NCBI GenBank assembly: GCA_037141135.1
Contig: JBAXDB010000001.1
Span: 9,191 to 73,190 of the forward strand
Direction of reading: 5' to 3'
DNA from: a bacterium
Lineage (GTDB): Bacteria > Verrucomicrobiota > Kiritimatiellia > CAIKKV01 > CAITUY01
Length of the DNA stretch: 64,000 bases
Shown here: positions 2,793 to 37,648 of the stretch, one piece after another
Numbering within the stretch: the stretch's first letter is position 1
Layout of the letters: each line of letters opens with the position of its first letter
Translations under genes and position numbers: made by a program
Notes under the pieces: generated by a model
Database searches by the model: none
The model's input: only the letters and a program-made list of their open reading frames with translations
Told to the model about the DNA's origin: nothing

Positions 2793-3089
2793 ATGCACAT
2801 TTGTGGCGTGCAAAAGGCCAAAAAGCGGAAGCCCTGGTTCTTATACCTCATTGAGTGTGAGGATAAGAGCATTTACACTGGCATCGCTGTGGATGTCACA
2901 GCACGTTATGCTGCTCACCAAAAGGGGACGGGCGCCCGTTACATGCGCGCTCATCCTCCGCGAAAGCTGCTGGCGGTGGTCGAATATACCAGTCGTTCCG
3001 CCGCCTCGCAGGCTGAGTATATGATCAAGCAAATGACGGCAGGGCAGAAGAGGGACTTTGCACGTAGTGCAAAGTCAGTGGGCAGTTGA
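2793..3089 (+). CDS. GIY-YIG domain nuclease family protein (UPF0213/YhbQ-like)
   Basis: WFLYLIECEDKSIYTGIAVDVTARYAAHQKG is a GIY-YIG signature. It is a 98 aa protein whose stop codon lies inside the heptamer repeat array. Confidence 0.75.
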   Translation: MHICGVQKAKKRKPWFLYLIECEDKSIYTGIAVDVTARYAAHQKGTGARYMRAHPPRKLLAVVEYTSRSAASQAEYMIKQMTAGQKRDFARSAKSVGS

Positions 3090-27693: not shown

Positions 27694-28845
27694 TCACTCC
27701 AACCTGGGGTTGAGAAACCCGGTATTGGGGTCGGTGATCTTCTGCAGGTAGGTCAGGAGTTCGCGATCATACTCGGCATCCGCATCCAAACCCATTTCCC
27801 GGTAAATGCCGCGCAGGCGGTAGTAGCTTTCTTCAGCCTCGCGGGCGCTGCCATAGCGCTGTTCCGGCTTGGGATCAAGAAAACGTTTCAGGAGCCGCAC
27901 GATGCGTTTACTTTTCTGGAGGTAGGGTGGAAGCATGGTTTCCACCCGGCCAAACATGGAAAGCTTGAACTGCAGCAGGGTCTCGTCATCCATGTCATTG
28001 CAGGCCTGCAAGGATTCGCCGCATAACATTTCCAGGGCTACCAGCCCGGTGCTGAAGAGGTCGGTTTGCGCGCGACCTGGTTCCAGCCGGTGTGTTTCGG
28101 GGGCCATGTAAATGGGGCTCCCGAGCAAAATACTGATTTTTTCGCCTATCTCAACCGCACGGCCAAAGTCAACCAGCTTTACGGAACCCATGCGGTCGAT
28201 CATGATGTTGGAGGGCTTAATGTCGGCATGGAGGTAATTGGCCTCGTGCAGGACCATCAACCCCATGAGAATCTTGCGCAGAATATAAAGGGCCACACCG
28301 GGCTGAAGCATGAAGCGGGCCTCTTCTAACCGGAAGAGGGTATTCATGTAATGGTCCCATTCCTCATCGGTGGACTGACTGCGGGCAATGGCGAGGTGTG
28401 AGCCACTCAAAAGGTATTGCAAATCAATGCCGTCAATCACCGACATCTGAAGATAGCCGATTCCGTTGGACTCATCGTAACTGTCGCGGGTGACAAGATT
28501 ATCGCTGTGGACCGGTTGAAGTTTCGAGACCTGACTGGCAAGGCGGCCCATATCGATCCAGTATTTATCGGCAGATGAATAGATTCCCGGGTCATGGATT
28601 TTAATGGCGTGCCGGGTATGGCAGCCCCGCCCCCCCTGGCGGGTGGCCAGGAAAACCACCCCTTGCCGGCCTTTGCCGAGTTCGCGGGAAAACTGGTAGG
28701 GAATGGGGTGGAGGATGCAGCGGCTTTTGATAATGGAATGATATTCAGCGATGAGCCGGCGAATGTCCGGATCAACAGGCGGGGAGGGCGGCTGGCTCTC
28801 CAGGACTGTTTCATCATCATAGATAAGAGTCGATGGCGTTGTCAT
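27694..28845 (-). CDS. Hanks-type serine/threonine protein kinase
   Basis: The catalytic loop HADIKPSNIMI, DFG, and the APE-like SPIYMAPE motif are present. It is convergent with ETF-QO with only 3 nt between the stops. Confidence 0.8.
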   Translation of the reverse strand: MTTPSTLIYDDETVLESQPPSPPVDPDIRRLIAEYHSIIKSRCILHPIPYQFSRELGKGRQGVVFLATRQGGRGCHTRHAIKIHDPGIYSSADKYWIDMGRLASQVSKLQPVHSDNLVTRDSYDESNGIGYLQMSVIDGIDLQYLLSGSHLAIARSQSTDEEWDHYMNTLFRLEEARFMLQPGVALYILRKILMGLMVLHEANYLHADIKPSNIMIDRMGSVKLVDFGRAVEIGEKISILLGSPIYMAPETHRLEPGRAQTDLFSTGLVALEMLCGESLQACNDMDDETLLQFKLSMFGRVETMLPPYLQKSKRIVRLLKRFLDPKPEQRYGSAREAEESYYRLRGIYREMGLDADAEYDRELLTYLQKITDPNTGFLNPRLE

Positions 28846-28959
28846 TTATAGTATGAACCCTATCATAGCGGATTCTGGCTGGCAATCATGGCGGTAATGG
28901 CTTAGAGTGCATCCGTTTTGATTTTTGCCCGGGATCGGGTATTGAGCGAGGAATCATTT

Positions 28960-31900
28960 ATGCAGTGGTTGTTGAAAAAAATTATCGGGACGAAAAATCA
29001 GCGTGATGTGAAAAAGATGCAGCCGCTGGTGCTTCGAATCAATGAACTTGAACAGCAGTATCAGGCGCTCACCGAGGATCAACTCAAGGCCAAAACTATT
29101 GAATTCAAGGAACGGTTGGCCAAGGGGCAAACGCTGGATGACCTCCTGTGCGAGGCCTTTGCGGTTGTGAAAAATGCCTGCCGCCGGTTGTGTGGCACGC
29201 ACTTTGATGTGTGTGGCCACGAACTGACATGGGAAATGATCCCCTTTGACACCCAGTTGATGGGTGGCATGGCGCTGCATCATGGTAAAATCGCCGAAAT
29301 GGCGACCGGTGAAGGCAAGACCCTGGTGGCCACTCTGCCGCTGTATTTGAACGCGTTAAGCGGTTCAAATGTTCATCTGGTGACGGTTAACGATTATCTG
29401 GCCCGGCGTGACTCGCAATGGATGGGGCTCCTTTTGCAATATCTTGGGCTTTCGGTGGGGTGTATCCAAAACCAGATGAATCCCGAGGAGCGTCGTGCGG
29501 AGTACGGCAAGGATATCACTTATGGCACTAACAGCGAGTTCGGCTTTGATTATCTGCGCGACAATGGCATGGCCTGGCGTGCCGAAGATCAGGTTCAGCG
29601 CGGTCACTTCTACGCCATCGTTGACGAAATCGACAGCATCCTGATTGACGAGGCGCGGACGCCGCTGATCATTTCCGGGCCCGCCCCGGTTTCTTCGCAC
29701 CAGTATCAGGAGGTAAAGCCCCGCGTGGAACGATTGGTGCGGCGTCAGTCCGAATTGTGCAACCAATTGATTGTTGAAGCACGGACCGCCATTGAGCAGA
29801 AGGATGACGATCTGGCCATGGAGAAGCTTTACATGGTCCGGCGCGGCATGCCAAAGCACAAGCAGTTAACGCATCTGCTTGAGGAACCCTCCGTGCGGCG
29901 TCTGGTGGAGAAGGTTGAAGGCATAATGCTGACCGATATGCACAAGGAGCAGGCCCGTGCGCTCCGGGAGCAGCTGTTTTTTGTGATTGATGAGAAGGGG
30001 CACGATGCCACCCTGACGGAAAAAGGATGCGAGGAGATGAGTCCCTCCGATCCTGATGCCTATGTTCTGCCGGACCTGGTGTCGGTGATGTCGGATATCG
30101 ACGGGGATGCCAGCTTGAGCGAATCGGAACGGGCCAAAAAGAAACTGGAGTTCCAGGAGCGGGTGGCTCAACGCAGTGAGCGCATTCATAATGTGGATCA
30201 ACTGATCAAAGCCTACTGCCTGTATGAAAAGGATGTCCAGTACGTGGTGCAGGATAATCAGGTGTTGATTGTGGATGAGTACACCGGTCGCATTCTGCCG
30301 GGTCGCCGCTGGAGTGACGGGCTGCATCAGGCGGTGGAAGCCAAAGAAAGTGTGAAGATCGAGCGGGAAACCCAGACCCTTGCGACGATTACCATTCAGA
30401 ATTATTTCCGGTTATATAAGAAGCTGGCCGGCATGACGGGTACGGCGGAGACGGAAGCGGATGAGTTTCACCAGATTTACAAACTCGATGTGATGGTCAT
30501 TCCCACCAACCGGCCGGTGCGTCGGGTGGATAAGAATGATGTGGTCTACAAGACCCAACGGGAAAAATTCAAGGCGATTGTCGATGAGATTGCCGAGTGC
30601 CATGAACGGCAACAGCCGGTGCTGGTGGGAACGATTTCGGTTGAGACTTCTGAATTGGTCAGCCGGATGTTGAATCGGGCGAAGATTCCCCATAGCGTTC
30701 TGAATGCCAAAAATCATGAGCGTGAGGCGGATATCGTGGCCCGCGCGGGGCAGAAGGGGGCGGTGACCATCGCCACCAATATGGCCGGCCGTGGAACGGA
30801 TATCAAACTGGGTGAGGGGGTTATCTGGGTGCCGCGCGAGGTGATCGTGTCGCAGCTTAAGCTGACAGAAAAACTCGATGGCAAATCCATGAAGGAGCAG
30901 TTGACGGAAAAGCCCTGCGGACTGTATGTGATCGGTTCCGAGCGGCATGAGTCACGGCGTATTGACCGTCAGTTGCGCGGCCGCTGTGCACGCCAGGGTG
31001 ATCCCGGAATGTCACGTTTCTATGTGTCGCTGGAAGACGATCTGATGCGGTTGTTCGGTTCCGACCGGATTGCCAGCTTTATGGAAAAATTCGGCATGGA
31101 GGAGGGCGAAATGCTCGAACATTCCATGTTGAACCGCTCCATTGAAACCGCCCAGCGCCGCGTCGAGCAGCAGAACTTTTCCATTCGCAAGCGTACGCTT
31201 GAGTATGACGACGTGATGAATAAACAGCGGTCGATCATCTATTCGTTCCGGGGGGATATCGTTCGCGGCATTGAAACCCGCGAGCAGCTGTATGATGTCA
31301 TTTACGATGTGATCTCCACCCATGTGGACTCCATGCTGGAGGGGGGCAAAGAGGATGCCATTGAGGCCTTCCTGATCTGGGTGCACACCACCTTCCCGAT
31401 TACCGTGAAGCGTGAGGAGTTAAGCCTGGGGAAAGAGGATCTTGAGAAGGTCGTGAGGATGATCTTTGAACGCGTCAAGGATGCCTACGAGGTCAAAGTG
31501 GCTTCGGAAGGTGGCGCCCTGATGCAGAATGTGGAGCGCCAGGTGATGTTGCAGGCCATTGATCTGCATTGGCAGGACTACCTTAGGGGGATCGACGGGC
31601 TGCGGCAGGGTATCGGGATGCGGGCCTATGGCCAGAGGGATCCTCTAATCGAATACAAGCGTGAAGCGTATGATATGTTTGCCACCTTGATGGATGATAT
31701 CCGTGAAGATATCTGTGAAAAGATTTTCCGGGCTTCGGCCCAGATGCTGGCGTTCGAGCGGTTTATGCGGGAGATGCCCACCCAGACCATCCACGACGGT
31801 GTGGTCGCGCTGGGTCAGCCTGCGGAGTCGACCGCTCAGCCGGCCCGCTCTGCGGTGCGTGGCGGTGATGCCGTTATGCAGGCGGCGTTGAAAGCCGCCT

Positions 31901-32001
31901 CCACGCCGGTCCAGCGCACGACTGCGAAAGTCGGGCGTAATGATGCCTGTCCCTGCGGGAGTGGCAAGAAATACAAAAAATGCTGTGGGGAAAATACTTG
32001 A
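28960..32001 (+). CDS. secA: preprotein translocase ATPase SecA
   Basis: The MATGEGKTL Walker A, DEAD-like motor motifs and the C-terminal zinc finger CPCGSGKKYKKCCG are present. The ATG at 28960 follows a GAGG RBS. Confidence 0.95.
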   Translation: MQWLLKKIIGTKNQRDVKKMQPLVLRINELEQQYQALTEDQLKAKTIEFKERLAKGQTLDDLLCEAFAVVKNACRRLCGTHFDVCGHELTWEMIPFDTQLMGGMALHHGKIAEMATGEGKTLVATLPLYLNALSGSNVHLVTVNDYLARRDSQWMGLLLQYLGLSVGCIQNQMNPEERRAEYGKDITYGTNSEFGFDYLRDNGMAWRAEDQVQRGHFYAIVDEIDSILIDEARTPLIISGPAPVSSHQYQEVKPRVERLVRRQSELCNQLIVEARTAIEQKDDDLAMEKLYMVRRGMPKHKQLTHLLEEPSVRRLVEKVEGIMLTDMHKEQARALREQLFFVIDEKGHDATLTEKGCEEMSPSDPDAYVLPDLVSVMSDIDGDASLSESERAKKKLEFQERVAQRSERIHNVDQLIKAYCLYEKDVQYVVQDNQVLIVDEYTGRILPGRRWSDGLHQAVEAKESVKIERETQTLATITIQNYFRLYKKLAGMTGTAETEADEFHQIYKLDVMVIPTNRPVRRVDKNDVVYKTQREKFKAIVDEIAECHERQQPVLVGTISVETSELVSRMLNRAKIPHSVLNAKNHEREADIVARAGQKGAVTIATNMAGRGTDIKLGEGVIWVPREVIVSQLKLTEKLDGKSMKEQLTEKPCGLYVIGSERHESRRIDRQLRGRCARQGDPGMSRFYVSLEDDLMRLFGSDRIASFMEKFGMEEGEMLEHSMLNRSIETAQRRVEQQNFSIRKRTLEYDDVMNKQRSIIYSFRGDIVRGIETREQLYDVIYDVISTHVDSMLEGGKEDAIEAFLIWVHTTFPITVKREELSLGKEDLEKVVRMIFERVKDAYEVKVASEGGALMQNVERQVMLQAIDLHWQDYLRGIDGLRQGIGMRAYGQRDPLIEYKREAYDMFATLMDDIREDICEKIFRASAQMLAFERFMREMPTQTIHDGVVALGQPAESTAQPARSAVRGGDAVMQAALKAASTPVQRTTAKVGRNDACPCGSGKKYKKCCGENT

Positions 32002-33647
32002 TCCGGCTGCCAGGGTGGATTCGCGAGTCGTGGCGATGGGTGGCAGCCGCAGTCTCGGGCTTGTTGCTGGCGCTCGCGTTTCCCCCTTTTGAGTCTGGTC
32101 AGATTGCCTGGGTGGCCTTGATCCCGCTCTTATTGGCGCTTCTGACGCCAGCACAGGACAAACCCGTATTTTGTTGGCAATCGCCCTTTATGCTGGGGTT
32201 AACCTCAGGCCTGTTCTTCTGGCTTATTACCCTGAGTTGGCTGTTCCGGTTGTTCGATACCTCACCTGCGCCCGCGGTATTGATCGTGGTCAGCTGGCTG
32301 TTGCTGTGTGGCTACTGCGCTCTTTACCTGGGCATTTTTGCCATGTCGGTCACGTGGATAGTCAGTAAAGTGGGGAAGGATAAAATCTGGAAAACGTTGC
32401 TGCTGATCCTCCTGATCCCGATATTGTGGGTGGGTGGCGAGGTCATTCGTTCGTTTCTATTCTCCGGCTTCCCGTGGAACCTGTTGGCGATTTCCCAGTT
32501 CCGGAATGTGGTTTTGATTCAAGCGGCACAGTGGGTAGGGGCGCCCGGTGTGTCAGGGGTGTTGATGCTGGTCAATACAGGCCTTGCATTCACCGTATTG
32601 CGTTATATTCCCTACCGCAGGCAGAAACATTACACCCCGCATTTGGAACTTTTTGTTGCATTGCTGAGTGTGGGGCTTTGTTTCCGTTCAGGAGTTGGCC
32701 TTGTCAGGGAATATGCCCCTTCGAGCGGCTTTGTCACGATTACCGCCATTCAACCGGCGATCCCTCAGATAACGAAATGGACTGAAGAGCAGGTGAATCT
32801 GATACACGCCACATTCCGCCGTTTAATGGCGCAGGCGGTGAAGGATCCGGATGGCAGCCCTGACCTCATTATCTGGCCTGAAACCGCAACGCCGTATTGT
32901 GTCAGGGATGAAAAGGGGGCGTCAAAAGATTTTGTTGAGGAACTCAGCCGGTGGGGAAGTCCCTTGTTGGTGGGATCCGTCGACGAGGTCAGCAGCGGTC
33001 GGAACGTGCTGTATTATAATGCGAGTTTTCTGTTCAATACCAATGGTGTTGTGGCCCGGCACTATTACAAGCAGCATCTTGTCCCATTTGGCGAGTATGT
33101 GCCCCTGAGCGGTATTTTCCCGGGGCTGGCGTCGCTGGCGCCCATGGGCTGGAACTGTTCCGCAGGACAGGAAGCAACTGTGTTTACGCTGGGGACCGGC
33201 AAAAGCTGGGCCTTTTCATGCCTGATTTGTTTTGAAGATATCATGGCGGATTTGTCCCGCAATGCTGTCAGGAACGGAGCCCGGTTGTTGGTGAATCAGA
33301 CGAATGATGCCTGGTTTGACCGTTCTGCAGGGCCGGAACAACATCTGGCACACTGCGTATTCCGGTGTGTGGAAAACCGGGTGGCGGCAGTGCGGGTGGC
33401 AAATTCGGGGATTTCCTGCCTGATTGAACCGACCGGGCTGATTGTTGAGCAGACGGAGAATGGGATTGGTCGATCGCCGGAATCCACCGTGTTGCGGTGG
33501 CAGGTGCCGATTCCCGGGGATGATTTTGAGTTGACCGCTTATACCCGGTATGGAGATTGGTTATTGGGCATTCCCTGCGGAGTTGTCGCCGCAGTGTGTT
33601 TTATGCTAGCCTGTTTGTGCCTGCGGCGTAAGACGTCGCTTGTGTGA
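31980..33647 (+). CDS. lnt: apolipoprotein N-acyltransferase
   Basis: An N-terminal multi-TM region is followed by a CN-hydrolase domain (WPE, ICFE, the Cys of CLICFED). The start overlaps the secA 3' end, so the exact start is uncertain. Confidence 0.8.
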   Translation: MLWGKYLIRLPGWIRESWRWVAAAVSGLLLALAFPPFESGQIAWVALIPLLLALLTPAQDKPVFCWQSPFMLGLTSGLFFWLITLSWLFRLFDTSPAPAVLIVVSWLLLCGYCALYLGIFAMSVTWIVSKVGKDKIWKTLLLILLIPILWVGGEVIRSFLFSGFPWNLLAISQFRNVVLIQAAQWVGAPGVSGVLMLVNTGLAFTVLRYIPYRRQKHYTPHLELFVALLSVGLCFRSGVGLVREYAPSSGFVTITAIQPAIPQITKWTEEQVNLIHATFRRLMAQAVKDPDGSPDLIIWPETATPYCVRDEKGASKDFVEELSRWGSPLLVGSVDEVSSGRNVLYYNASFLFNTNGVVARHYYKQHLVPFGEYVPLSGIFPGLASLAPMGWNCSAGQEATVFTLGTGKSWAFSCLICFEDIMADLSRNAVRNGARLLVNQTNDAWFDRSAGPEQHLAHCVFRCVENRVAAVRVANSGISCLIEPTGLIVEQTENGIGRSPESTVLRWQVPIPGDDFELTAYTRYGDWLLGIPCGVVAAVCFMLACLCLRRKTSLV

Positions 33648-33665
33648 AGAGGGAGTGAAGTAAAT

Positions 33666-34791
33666 ATGAATGAAGATATTCAGGGCCGCATTCAGGAAAT
33701 GCGGGAGAAAACCGATGAGATGCGAGGTTATCTTTGACGTCGCCAAACGCAAAGCCACTTTAAACGAACTTGAGGCCCAAACCGCTATGCCTGGTTTTTG
33801 GGATGACCCGAACAAGGCCAAGGCGCATCTCGGGCGCGTGAATGAAATCAAGGCGGTGTTGGATCCATTCGCCCGGATTGACAAACTGGTGGAAGAAGCC
33901 GGGCTGATGGTCGAATTATCCGAGGCGGAAGAGCCTGGTCCGCTCCGGGATCACGCCCTGAGCGACGCCGCCAAGGACCTTGATCGTGCTGAAGTTCTTT
34001 TTAATGAATTAGAGACGCGGTCGCTTTTGAGCGGTCCACTCGACCGGAGTAATGCCTTTGTGACCGTCCATGCCGGCGCCGGTGGCACGGAATCCTGCGA
34101 CTGGGCCAATATGCTCTTCCGCATGTTTCAACGCTTTGCTTCGAAAAAAGGCTTTGAAGTTGAAGTCCTTGACATTCAGGCAGGGGATGAAGCTGGAATC
34201 AAATACGCTACCTTCGCTGTGCGCGGCCCTTTTGCCTATGGTTTCATGAAATGTGAACGGGGCATTCACCGGTTGGTGCGGATCAGTCCCTTCGACTCCA
34301 ATAAGCGGCGCCACACCTCCTTTGCGTCATTGGACGTCATTGCCGAGTTGGACGAGGATATTGAGGTCGAGATTGATGAAAAGGATCTGCGGATTGACAC
34401 CTTCCGGTCCAGCGGTTCGGGTGGACAGCACGTCAACAAGACAGACTCAGCCATCCGTATCACCCATATGCCGACCGGACTTGTCGTGTCCTGTCAGGCG
34501 GAACGTTCCCAGCACATGAACAAGGCCAAGTCGATGCAGATGCTGAAGGCCAAGATTTATGAGCTTGAGATGGATAAGAAGCGCAAGGAAATGGAGCGCT
34601 TCTATGGCCAGAAGGGCGAAATCGCCTGGGGCAGCCAAATCCGCTCCTATGTTTTCCAGCCCTACACCATGGTGAAAGATCATCGTACGGATGCCGAAAC
34701 CAGTAATGTCGAGGCTGTCATGGACGGTGATTTGGATCGTTTCATTGAGGCTTACCTGAAGAAGGAAAAAGTGGCTGAGAGGAAGGGGTAA
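33666..34791 (+). CDS. prfB: peptide chain release factor 2 with programmed +1 ribosomal frameshift (frame 0 33666..33737, then +1 frame 33736..34791)
   Basis: The frame-0 [26 protein letters not shown] ends at the in-frame TGA of the canonical CTT TGA C shift site, which is preceded by an SD-like GAGG. The +1 frame continues [14 protein letters not shown]... through the SGGQHVN (GGQ) motif and the RF2 domains. Confidence 0.9.
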
Positions 34792-34795
34792 GGCG

Positions 34796-35680
34796 ATGTC
34801 AGTACGCAGCATGACCGGTTATGGGCGTGGCGATGCCACGGCAAAAGGCCTCCGTGTTGAGGTCGAATTGAACTCTGTCAACCGCAAGCAATTGGAAGTC
34901 CGGATTTCGCTGCCGCGCGCCTGGCAGTCATTGGAATCGCGGGTTGGGGAATTGGTTCAGGAAGCCATTTCGCGGGGCCAGGTATCCGGTTCAATCGTGG
35001 TGCATGTTTCCGAAGCTTTGCGCGCGAAAAGCCTGAAAGTTAACAAAGAACTCGCCATGGTCTATGTGACCGAACTTCGCAAGACAGCCAAGGCATTGAA
35101 GTTGAAGGATGACCTTTCCGCGAGTTTAGTGTTGAGTCTTCCGGAGGTGGTGAGTTATTCCGGGGTGGATCAGGATGTGGATTATGTCTGGCCGGTGATG
35201 GAAAAGGGGGTCAAGGCCGCGATGGCCCAGCTCCTGGTCATGCGGCTCAAGGAAGGGGCGGCGCTGACCCATGATTTGGAGAACCGGTTGAAAAAACTCG
35301 AGGAACATCTCGACTGCATCCGGCAGGAAGCTCCTCAAGTGACGAAACGGTATCGTGAAGCACTCCGCAAACGTCTGGCACAGGCGGCGGTGACCTTGGA
35401 TGTCACGGATCCGGTGGTGACGAAGGATCTGGCCCTGTTTGCCGATCGGTCGGATATCACCGAGGAGATTACGCGGTTGGAGAGCCATCTCAAGCAGGCC
35501 TACGCCTTGTTCAAATCCCGCGAACCCGTGGGGCGGACCTTGGATTTTCTCGCCCAGGAGATGTTTCGGGAAATCAATACCATTGGATCAAAGGCCAATG
35601 AGGTCCGGATCACGCGGCAGGTGATTGAATTCAAAACCGAGTTGGAACGGATCCGGGAACAGGTTCAGAATATCGAATAG
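34796..35680 (+). CDS. yicC: YicC/YloC family stress-induced protein
   Basis: MTGYG at the N-terminus and the conserved C-terminal EINTIGSKAN...EFK are present, at 294 aa. Confidence 0.8.
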   Translation: MSVRSMTGYGRGDATAKGLRVEVELNSVNRKQLEVRISLPRAWQSLESRVGELVQEAISRGQVSGSIVVHVSEALRAKSLKVNKELAMVYVTELRKTAKALKLKDDLSASLVLSLPEVVSYSGVDQDVDYVWPVMEKGVKAAMAQLLVMRLKEGAALTHDLENRLKKLEEHLDCIRQEAPQVTKRYREALRKRLAQAAVTLDVTDPVVTKDLALFADRSDITEEITRLESHLKQAYALFKSREPVGRTLDFLAQEMFREINTIGSKANEVRITRQVIEFKTELERIREQVQNIE

Positions 35681-35706
35681 CAATTATGAAGTATGAAGGA
35701 TGAAGC

Positions 35707-36318
35707 ATGAAAGGGGCAGGTCAGAGGAGGGCGTTGTTAATTGTGGTATCGGCACCGTCAGGGGCTGGTAAGACAACGTTGTGTAACCGGCTGCTTGCCG
35801 AGCATGCCTGTATGACACGTTCCATCTCCTGTACGACCCGTGCCCCGCGCGGGGCGGAGGTGGATGGGCAGCACTATCATTTTTTGACACTTGCCGAATT
35901 CAACCGTCGTCTTGCAGAAGGATTGTTCCTGGAGCATGCTGTTGTGCATGGCAATCAGTACGGAACGCTGCGCAGCAACGTGGAGTCAGCGCTTAAGGCG
36001 GGTAAGGATGTACTCCTGGTGATTGATGTCCAGGGGGCGGCTCAAGTTCGCCGGGCGGCCCAAGCCCTGGGGGGGACCCTGGGCCGCGCCTATGTCGATA
36101 TATTTATCGCGCCACCCTCGTTGGAGACCCTGCGTGAGCGGCTTCAAAAACGGGGTGAGGATACCTCGGAAGTGATTGAGCGCCGATTGATCAATGCCCG
36201 GGGTGAAATGGAGCGGGGGCGTGAATACCAATACCGTGTGGTGAACGACAATTTGGAGCAGGCATATGCCGAACTGAATTCCATCATCAACGCGGAACAT
36301 GAACGGACATCATGTTAA
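35707..36318 (+). CDS. gmk: guanylate kinase
   Basis: The P-loop SAPSGAGKTT and the GMP-binding SCTTRAPRGAEVDGQHYHF are present. Confidence 0.9.
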   Translation: MKGAGQRRALLIVVSAPSGAGKTTLCNRLLAEHACMTRSISCTTRAPRGAEVDGQHYHFLTLAEFNRRLAEGLFLEHAVVHGNQYGTLRSNVESALKAGKDVLLVIDVQGAAQVRRAAQALGGTLGRAYVDIFIAPPSLETLRERLQKRGEDTSEVIERRLINARGEMERGREYQYRVVNDNLEQAYAELNSIINAEHERTSC

Positions 36319-37115
36319 TTGATACCCATGCCCATTTCCGGGAAGCCATGACGTCCGGCGATCTTGCCGGGATCATGGAGCGGGCTCGGTTTGCCGGGGT
36401 GGGGCGGATCATGGCGGTGGGGTGCGAACCTGAAACCAATGCGGCTGCCTTGCGCATGGCGACGGCCTATCCGGATCGCGTCAAGGCCGCAGTTGCTTAC
36501 GATCGGAGCCTGGCGGGGTCTGATGCCAAGGTTGACGATATCCGGCTATTGATCCAATCGGCTCCCGTCGGGCAGGTCACGGCCATCGGGGAGATCGGTC
36601 TTGATTTCTATTATGAACCCGAGACAGCTGAACTCCAGCAGGCATTGATGGATGCACAGCTTTCATTGGCCCGGGAACTTCGATTGCCGGTGATTGTGCA
36701 TAGCCGGCAGGCGGATGCCGAAACGTTGGCTTTATTGTCGGCCCATGCAAAAGGATGGGCAGGTGCGCCTGACCGGATCGGGGTTCTGCATTGTTTTACC
36801 GGTGAGGAAGCGTTTGCCAGGCAGTTGCTGGAATTGGGGTTCATGATCAGTTTCAGCGGGATTGTCACCTTCCGGAATGCTGGTCCGTTGCGCATGGTGG
36901 CCAAAATGATCCCTGATGACCGGTTATTGCTTGAGACCGATTCCCCGTATCTTGCCCCTGTACCCCATCGCGGCAAGCCCAATGAGCCCTGCTATCTGCC
37001 TGCCGTGGCGGCCATTATTGCCGGGGTACGGGGAGTAATGGTGGAAGCAATTGCACACATAACTTCGGACAACGCGCTGCGGCTCTTTCAGATGAATATG
37101 CAAAATCAGGAGTGA
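36312..37115 (+). CDS. tatD: TatD family metal-dependent DNase/hydrolase
   Basis: IDTHAHF, EIGLDFYY, VIVHSR and LETDSPYLAP are present. Confidence 0.85.
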   Translation: MLIDTHAHFREAMTSGDLAGIMERARFAGVGRIMAVGCEPETNAAALRMATAYPDRVKAAVAYDRSLAGSDAKVDDIRLLIQSAPVGQVTAIGEIGLDFYYEPETAELQQALMDAQLSLARELRLPVIVHSRQADAETLALLSAHAKGWAGAPDRIGVLHCFTGEEAFARQLLELGFMISFSGIVTFRNAGPLRMVAKMIPDDRLLLETDSPYLAPVPHRGKPNEPCYLPAVAAIIAGVRGVMVEAIAHITSDNALRLFQMNMQNQE

Positions 37116-37468
37116 CTGCTCAGCGATACAAAATTCAGGATTCAAAATTCAGTATTCAGAATTCAGACGTGAAGACCATCGTGCGTAAGGTGCAGTGGCA
37201 GATCAAGTTCCTCAAGCCTTTTGCGTCTGAGCGTGTCATGATTTTCGTGAACGAGCCTGTGCTGGCCGCCTATGGGAGCAGTACTTATATCTATGTTTCC
37301 GAGGAGGCGGATAATCAGTATCAGCCTGCGTTAAATTACGTGCAGGCACAGTTGGCCAAGTATCAGGCTGATGATAATCTGAAATTGGTAGGCCGATATT
37401 GGAAATTGCTCCAGTATTTTGAACATCATCGTGCAAATTGGGTAAAAGACAGGGAGTCCGACTCATGA
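37112..37468 (+). CDS. hypothetical protein (118 aa); N-terminus encoded by NNATTCA heptamer repeats
   Basis: The ORF is translationally coupled to tatD (ATGA overlap) and has no recognisable domain. Confidence 0.4.
   Translation: MTAQRYKIQDSKFSIQNSDVKTIVRKVQWQIKFLKPFASERVMIFVNEPVLAAYGSSTYIYVSEEADNQYQPALNYVQAQLAKYQADDNLKLVGRYWKLLQYFEHHRANWVKDRESDS
37131..37167. repeat. tandem heptamers NNATTCA x5 (aaattca ggattca aaattca gtattca gaattca)
   Basis: The 7-nt periodicity is read directly. The array is related to the CAG-centred heptamer family seen elsewhere in the window. Confidence 0.7.
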
Positions 37469-37648
37469 AAACGACTAATCTGGAAGTGCTAAGGGAAGTA
37501 AGGAATGAAGGCAAAAGTCATTGCGGTGTAGAACATGTACGGGGAAATGGTTATCTGGTTCTGAATTCCCGCCAAAAAATGACCACCCCGGCTACTCTTG
37601 CGAGAGAGCCCCATGGGCTCTTGTTACCGGGGTGGGACCTTTTCTAAT
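37466..37648 (+). CDS. possible small ORF (60 aa, MKTTNLEVLREVRNEGKSHCGVEH...), doubtful
   Basis: It is an ATG ORF in the same frame as the ORF-track 37438..37647 entry. It has no similarity I recognise, and its 3' end is occupied by a terminator hairpin. Confidence 0.2.

Follow-up and report, generated by a model that had tools for sequence, protein, structure and literature searches.

The +1 frameshift of Escherichia coli prfB and the autoregulation of release factor 2 (RF2) were reportedly described by Craigen and Caskey in 1986, and in RefSeq the E. coli gene is entered as a two-piece CDS noted "programmed frameshift". Work on the shift and on autoregulation in E. coli and Bacillus subtilis is summarised in a survey that recovered the prfB frameshift motif in 8,164 of 12,753 bacterial genomes (64%), the stop being TGA in 98.6% of the motifs, TAA in 1.4% and TAG in none (PMC12421855). 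The same survey describes a near-invariant CTTTGA followed by C, with an SD-like consensus approaching AGGGGG placed 3 nt before the slippery sequence, notes that in-frame prfB genes have lost both the SD-like and the slippery elements, and treats the motif as ancestral with repeated losses (PMC12421855). The strings 'Kiritimatiell' and 'Verrucomicrobi' are absent from its main text, in which the Kiritimatiellia lineage may simply not have been singled out. A further point of comparison is provided by Flavobacterium johnsoniae and the Bacteroidia, for which PMC10798248 describes limited use of Shine-Dalgarno (SD) sequences for initiation together with retention of the internal SD of prfB.

In the present study we analysed a prfB locus from an uncultured member of the Kiritimatiellia, contained in a stretch of DNA of 64,000 nucleotides with a GC content of 55%, which is referred to below in its entirety as the window. 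On the whole, the evidence makes it almost certain that the gene beginning at 33666 is prfB, coding for the class-I peptide chain release factor 2 by way of a classical +1 programmed ribosomal frameshift. Three rival explanations, namely an assembly or sequencing error, a pair of independently translated units, and a pseudogene or a reassigned or read-through TGA, are improbable even when taken jointly, and are weighed below alongside the evidence that bears on each of them.

Reading frames of prfB and identity of the product

Frame 0 begins at the ATG at 33666. Upstream of it, and in the same frame, lies the TGA of lnt (33645-33647), and no other start codon comes between the two. From the ATG, frame 0 holds 23 sense codons before it meets a TGA at 33735-33737. 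The GAC at 33736 opens the +1 frame, which continues for 351 codons to the TAA at 34789-34791 and carries both SPF (34285-34293), the RF2-type tripeptide for stop-codon recognition, and GGQ (34420-34428), the motif for peptidyl hydrolysis. An earlier sequence-only reading had described the same start, 23-residue frame and TGA, and had taken the +1 frame from GAC to be RF2 through the GGQ motif; every coordinate and sequence that it gave for the start, frame and stop holds, and the open +1 frame with its two motifs bears out the assignment. The features of the locus are the following.

33651..33658, + strand: Shine-Dalgarno-like sequence GGGAGTGA for initiation, between lnt and prfB (18-nt gap) and 8-15 nt ahead of the start codon
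33666..33734, + strand: frame-0 segment of prfB, with the true start ATG and 23 sense codons, corresponding to the N-terminal helix region of RF2
33724..33728, + strand: internal SD-like GAGGT, 3 nt (TAT) upstream of CTT, with a predicted 5-bp duplex and codon invariance within the clade
33729..33731, + strand: TAT (Tyr), the E-site codon at the shift, the same in E. coli
33732..33738, + strand: shift site CTT TGA C, aligned to E. coli prfB, with the slippery CTTT, the RF2-specific TGA at 33735-33737 and a 3' C
33736..34791, + strand: +1-frame segment of prfB, from GAC (Asp24) to the TAA at 34789-34791, with the PCRF and RF-1 domains, SPF and GGQ

Joining frame 0 (33666-33734) to frame +1 (33736-34788) yields a product of 374 aa, which scores 503.8 bits against the prfB model TIGR00020 (cutoff 370) and covers all of model positions 1-353. 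With scores of 273.9 and 267.2 bits against cutoffs of 400 and 423, the same product falls short of both RF1 models, and the prfH model gives 115 bits. Pfam places the PCRF domain (PF03462) at residues 30-221 and the RF-1 domain (PF00472) at residues 230-340, and the best matches among solved structures are all RF2, with E-values from 2.5e-115 to 1e-89. Residues 5-365 align to residues 7-362 of E. coli RF2 (1ml5_Z) with no gap at the junction RGYL/D, where ...EMRGYLDVAKRK... of the window stands against ...VLRGYLDYDAKK... of E. coli RF2; this gapless alignment implies that Leu23 and Asp24 correspond to Leu25 and Asp26 of the E. coli protein. The comparison with E. coli prfB around codons 25-26, which the earlier reading had put forward as a check, thus gives a continuous protein junction, and at the DNA level the site matches column for column. 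The peptide encoded by frame 0 itself shows homology to the N-terminus of RF2, matching residues 7-25 of the E. coli protein and positions 1-15 of the model. The TGA is codon 24 of the prfB leader, with homology lying in frame 0 before it and in frame +1 after it. These frames show that a full-length RF2 requires a +1 shift at codon 24, as had been proposed for the CTT TGA C of this gene.

The computed list of open reading frames contains instead an ORF at 33670..34791 (373 aa), which is the +1 frame extended back to an ATG that overlaps the true start by four bases. This listing would be in keeping with a pair of units, that is, a short ORF at 33666-33737 and an RF2 initiated separately at the ATG at 33670, 33715 or 33787. 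Codons of this kind are taken as starts in the database proteins of the clade, in one relative (L081) the leader has been called as a separate 55-aa gene, and the +1-only products pass the TIGR00020 cutoff, the ORF from 33670 scoring 493.9 bits over model positions 11-353 and the product starting at the ATG at 33787 scoring 478.5 bits over positions 34-353. Against this stands the distribution of homology, since RF2 N-terminal similarity is present in the frame-0 peptide and absent from the N-terminus of the +1 frame. The first 22 residues of the 33670 ORF are non-homologous, and alignment with the RF2 model does not begin until residue 18 (position 11 of the model); as the first 17 residues are unaligned, the N-terminus is not RF2-like, and its description as spurious in the earlier reading was correct. 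That reading had also named the finding that would count against it, namely a start downstream of the TGA that keeps the N-terminal RF2 residues. In the +1 frame of the window there are no start codons between the TGA and 33787, because the codon after GAC is GTC, and the first one downstream, the ATG at 33787 (Met41), would remove about 40 conserved N-terminal residues. Hence this objection fails. The stop at the prfB site is, moreover, never TAG (PMC12421855), a further point against two separate units, which we regard as very improbable.

Formally, a gene with a stop in frame so close to its 5' end looks like a pseudogene, and a TGA in this position might alternatively be reassigned or read through (genetic codes 4 or 25, or selenocysteine). 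The +1 frame is, however, intact for all of its 351 codons, with SPF, GGQ and full-length coverage of the RF2 model, and the gene is under purifying selection within a clade spanning 72-93% identity. Readthrough of the TGA in frame 0 leads only to 11 non-homologous codons followed by a stop. As for reassignment, the 53 crude ORFs of the window end in TGA in 23 cases (upstream lnt among them), in TAA in 23 and in TAG in seven. A decayed gene or a recoded TGA is therefore extremely improbable. Since TGA is an ordinary stop here, RF2 is needed; the locus shows that the source organism reads its genes with the standard code, in which TGA is a true stop, and possesses a working RF2.

The initiation region is consistent with translation from 33666. 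The duplex of GGGAGTGA with the 16S tail ACCUCCUUA, a near-universal tail assumed for this lineage, has a predicted energy of -7.6 kcal/mol, and GGAG-type motifs occur at similar positions before the prfB start in three relatives (L082-L084). Six clade sequences have this ATG at the same place in the alignment, and it also lines up with the start region of the E. coli gene; together with the GGAG-type SD upstream, this upholds 33666 as the true start, the position that the earlier reading had considered fixed. Across the window, 30% of ORF starts have an SD-type duplex of -6 kcal/mol or lower ahead of them, as against 11% of random positions, a moderate enrichment given that the starts are crudely assigned; this enrichment at gene starts makes a functional anti-SD tail plausible.

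An interval of 18 nt separates prfB from lnt upstream, and the genes follow one another as secA-lnt-prfB-yicC-gmk-tatD. The same order is found in L083, and secA-lnt-prfB-yicC is kept in L084; in L082 a gene on the opposite strand has been inserted after prfB, and in L081 the upstream neighbour is different. A scan of 28500-37500 for promoter and terminator consensus sequences gave only near-background matches and found no promoter-like site in the lnt-prfB gap, so that prfB is likely to be co-transcribed with lnt. Some other characteristics of this neighbourhood may be recorded. A terminator-like hairpin with a T-rich tail lies at 33575-33594, inside the 3' end of lnt and about 70 nt before the prfB start; terminator-like consensus matches in the region are close in number to the shuffled expectation. 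The lnt ORF, starting at the ATG at 31980, overlaps the end of secA (stop 32001) by 22 nt, and this overlap may be real or may reflect an lnt start placed too far upstream by the first-start rule. No tRNA genes were found in the whole 64-kb window.

The shift site and its conservation in relatives

The local string around the site reads gcGAGGT TAT CTT TGA C (33724-33738). A C immediately 3' of TGA constitutes a weak-termination context. In an alignment of leader DNA from E. coli prfB, the window and four clade members, TATCTTTGAC is invariant; BLAST against E. coli genomes had aligned the core alone (query 596-987), and the annotated E. coli locus was then aligned directly. There are 10 copies of the heptamer CTTTGAC in the window as against 7.37 expected, and with a count so near expectation the heptamer carries no weight by itself. 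It is the position of the site, with RF2 homology on both sides and conservation in relatives, that is far beyond chance. Folding of the RNA at 33700-33820 is no better than in shuffled controls (z = -0.33), and this lack of structure fits prfB shifting, which needs no downstream structure. An Rfam scan of the whole 64-kb window returned no family at threshold, and hence no curated RNA element at the site.

CTT followed by a stop is found at the homologous prfB codon in 59 of 80 related genomic loci, as CTT TGA C in 55, CTT TAA C in three and CTT TGA G in one. The gene is uninterrupted in 19 further loci, and two are unscored, namely L047, where the contig edge intervenes, and L030, where the SPF..GGQ pattern was unmatched. 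The closest genome is a Kiritimatiellia MAG (L001) at 93% identity. Together with L081-L084 it makes up a set of five independent assemblies, with 72-93% protein identity, which share the identical 19-nt string ATG CGA GGT TAT CTT TGA C and also keep the 23-codon leader and the aligned ATG.

A codon alignment of the six clade sequences (the window, L001 and L081-L084) was used to assess constraint on the nucleotides. The same codon is used in all six at 24 of the 207 degenerate columns with an invariant amino acid, and the rates of codon invariance lie between 6 and 15% across the two-, four- and six-fold degenerate classes. Codons 19-24 are six invariant codons in succession, the sole run longer than one in prfB in this alignment, and the product of the class rates for the five degenerate codons of the run is about 1e-5. 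Within it CGA GGT is invariant in the six sequences, whereas Arg and Gly codons elsewhere vary freely. This invariant run shows selection on the nucleotides themselves, the SD-like CGAGGT included. A natural control is provided by an uninterrupted Kiritimatiellia gene (L002), in which RGYLD is encoded by CGC GGC TAT CTG GAC, without the SD-like string and without CTTT. Codon comparison thus shows all elements of the classical motif to be present and, by this measure, under purifying selection at the nucleotide level. Independent initiation of a second unit would leave unexplained why the SD-like element and the slippery codons show no synonymous change.

The same comparisons bear on the notion that one spurious T, introduced by assembly or sequencing, has broken an uninterrupted gene. 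A single-base difference would suffice to produce the observed frames, and an uninterrupted prfB does exist in other Kiritimatiellia (L002-L004). The identical 19-nt site, however, recurs in the five independent assemblies, which come from different samples, and CTT followed by a stop is present at the 59 of 80 loci across several phyla. Removal of the T would not recreate the in-frame relatives, from which the SD-like string and CTTT are missing as well, and the break falls at the canonical codon along with every element of the motif. An error of this kind is accordingly the least probable of the three rivals, and the chance of it is vanishingly small.

Several observations from this survey of loci deserve mention in their own right. 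Within the Kiritimatiellia the motif is patchy: it occurs in the clade of the window (39 of 39 protein clusters, with identities of 70% or more), and in the next clade (L002-L004, 61-64% identity) prfB is uninterrupted, with the SD-like element and CTTT lost and the RGYL residues kept. Three loci from Lachnospiraceae/Eisenbergiella (L054, L059 and L060, with the site at about 3006 in each) have CTT TAA C in place of CTT TGA C; as TAA is read by both RF1 and RF2, feedback through such a site would be less specific to RF2. One locus from Zixibacteria (L077, site 3009) has CTT TGA G, the sole case among the 59 sites in which the base after the stop is other than C. In L030 (Lachnospiraceae) the SPF..GGQ pattern missed the RF2 core despite a tblastn match at 52% identity, which could be due to a variant of the motif, to a frameshift or to a masked stretch. 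The locus L004 (CAVDHG010000150.1), filed as Agathobacter rectalis, carries a Kiritimatiellia-like uninterrupted prfB that is 61% identical to that of the window and closely resembles L003. A bacterial RF2 is likewise found on L047 (WUQU01000276.1), a contig filed as a Bathyarchaeota archaeon, and in both cases the genome bin looks contaminated.

The internal Shine-Dalgarno-like element and the proposed mechanism

The internal SD-like element of the window departs somewhat from the usual form. Calculated with the same assumed 16S tail as above, GAGGU is predicted to pair with ACCUC of the tail at positions -8 to -4 from CUU, forming 5 bp at -6.6 kcal/mol. Most relatives have GGAGG(U) or AGGGGG(U) paired through position -3, with predicted energies of -10 to -13 kcal/mol, and the range over all surveyed sites is -1.4 to -13.4 kcal/mol. 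In the 16S register the element of the window lies one nucleotide further from CUU than the AGGGGG of E. coli or the GGAGG of most relatives. This offset 5-bp variant is common to L001, L081-L084 and a locus from Gemmatimonadota (L061). The GAGG that the earlier reading had identified as an internal SD-like sequence is therefore present, but it is better described as GAGGU, with 5 bp, weaker than the canonical element and offset by one base.

The efficiency of frameshifting in E. coli is sensitive to the spacing between the SD and the P-site codon; given this sensitivity and the one-nucleotide offset, the efficiency in the organism of the window could differ. The strict conservation of synonymous sites nevertheless argues that the SD-like element is probably functional as it stands. 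One might go further and suppose that the unusual SD sets a lineage-specific level of RF2, through a lower or retuned efficiency or an altered 16S 3' tail, and is perhaps an intermediate on the way to loss of the motif. The synonymous freezing of CGAGGU at 7-28% protein divergence and the existence of sister lineages without the motif are what suggest this idea, which we consider unlikely.

Among the relatives there are also frameshift-bearing prfB genes in which hardly any internal SD can be recognised. In a locus from Auribacterota (L014, site 3006) the string is 'aagaaaa TTT CTT TGA C' (-1.4 kcal/mol). Three loci from Planctomycetota/Phycisphaerae (L023, L040 and L071) have 'cgggac TGG CTT TGA C', at -4.3 kcal/mol, and here the E-site codon is one for Trp.

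By analogy with the E. coli system, expression of prfB in the window may be envisaged as follows. Translation would start at the ATG at 33666 and, after 23 codons, would bring UGA-C into the A site while peptidyl-tRNA-Leu occupies CUU in the P site. The UGA would be read only by RF2, and the C that follows would slow termination. With RF2 plentiful, termination at UGA would release the 23-residue peptide; with RF2 scarce, the ribosome would pause there. During the pause GAGGU could pair with the anti-SD of 16S rRNA at a very short spacing, destabilising the pairing in the E and P sites, whereupon tRNA-Leu would re-pair from CUU to UUU, one base forward. GAC would then be decoded as residue 24 and the 374-aa RF2 completed, so that RF2 would exert negative feedback on its own synthesis. 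It is from this analogy that we infer the slip and its efficiency at this prfB, as well as the pairing of SD with anti-SD and the autoregulation; the site makes autoregulation by RF2 very likely. The earlier reading had held the site to confirm autoregulatory recoding; the need for the +1 shift stands, but as regards autoregulation the claim was too strong, given that this part derives from the mechanism in E. coli and from the RF2 specificity of the TGA.

Annotation of prfB and comparison with known systems

The frameshift itself is already known, the mechanism being a textbook one and its distribution having been published (PMC12421855), and the site opens no new question; its main value is for annotation. 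The prfB CDS should be entered as join(33666..33734, 33736..34791) and marked as a programmed +1 frameshift; its product is a 374-aa RF2, and the 373-aa ORF from 33670 is wrong. All 39 of the nearest protein clusters in a public collection are truncated or mis-started at the shift point. In 13 of them the residues CEVIFD are seen, which are the +1-frame reading of TGC GAG GTT ATC TTT GAC, and an N-terminus with the in-frame RGYLD occurs in none of the 39. Public prfB gene calls for the clade of the window are thus systematically wrong at the 5' end, and mis-calls of this kind are widespread among the protein sets derived from public metagenomes. The separately annotated 55-aa leader gene of L081 spans 2877-3044 of that locus.

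With respect to the Bacteroidia (PMC10798248), the likeness is that gene starts in the window make only moderate use of SD sequences and that the internal SD of prfB is strictly conserved. Bacteroidia sequester the anti-SD tail; nothing in the present data suggests as much for the Kiritimatiellia, and the prfB start of the window has a GGAG-type SD. The published survey of prfB offers a closer match. The site of the window fits its consensus of an SD-like element, 3 nt, CTTT, TGA and C, and the patchy occurrence of the motif in the Kiritimatiellia and the PVC group matches the repeated losses proposed there. The in-frame relatives found here likewise lack both the SD-like and the slippery elements, the three CTT TAA C loci (L054, L059 and L060) match the 1.4% TAA class, and nothing in the present set differs qualitatively from that picture (PMC12421855).

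Comparison with E. coli prfB reveals differences of detail around a common core. The leader has 23 sense codons in the window as against 25 in E. coli, and just upstream of TATCTTTGAC E. coli has CTT AGG GGG where the window has ATG CGA GGT, so that the SD-like element is CGAGGU (5 bp) in the window and AGGGGG(U) (6-7 bp) in E. coli. The neighbourhoods are also distinct, with secA-lnt-prfB-yicC-gmk-tatD in the window and recJ-prfB-lysS in E. coli. The genes are nevertheless orthologous, and TAT CTT TGA C is identical at the homologous Tyr-Leu-stop-Asp; both have an RF2-specific TGA followed by C, a purine-rich SD-like element just upstream, and the residues RGYL/D across the junction.
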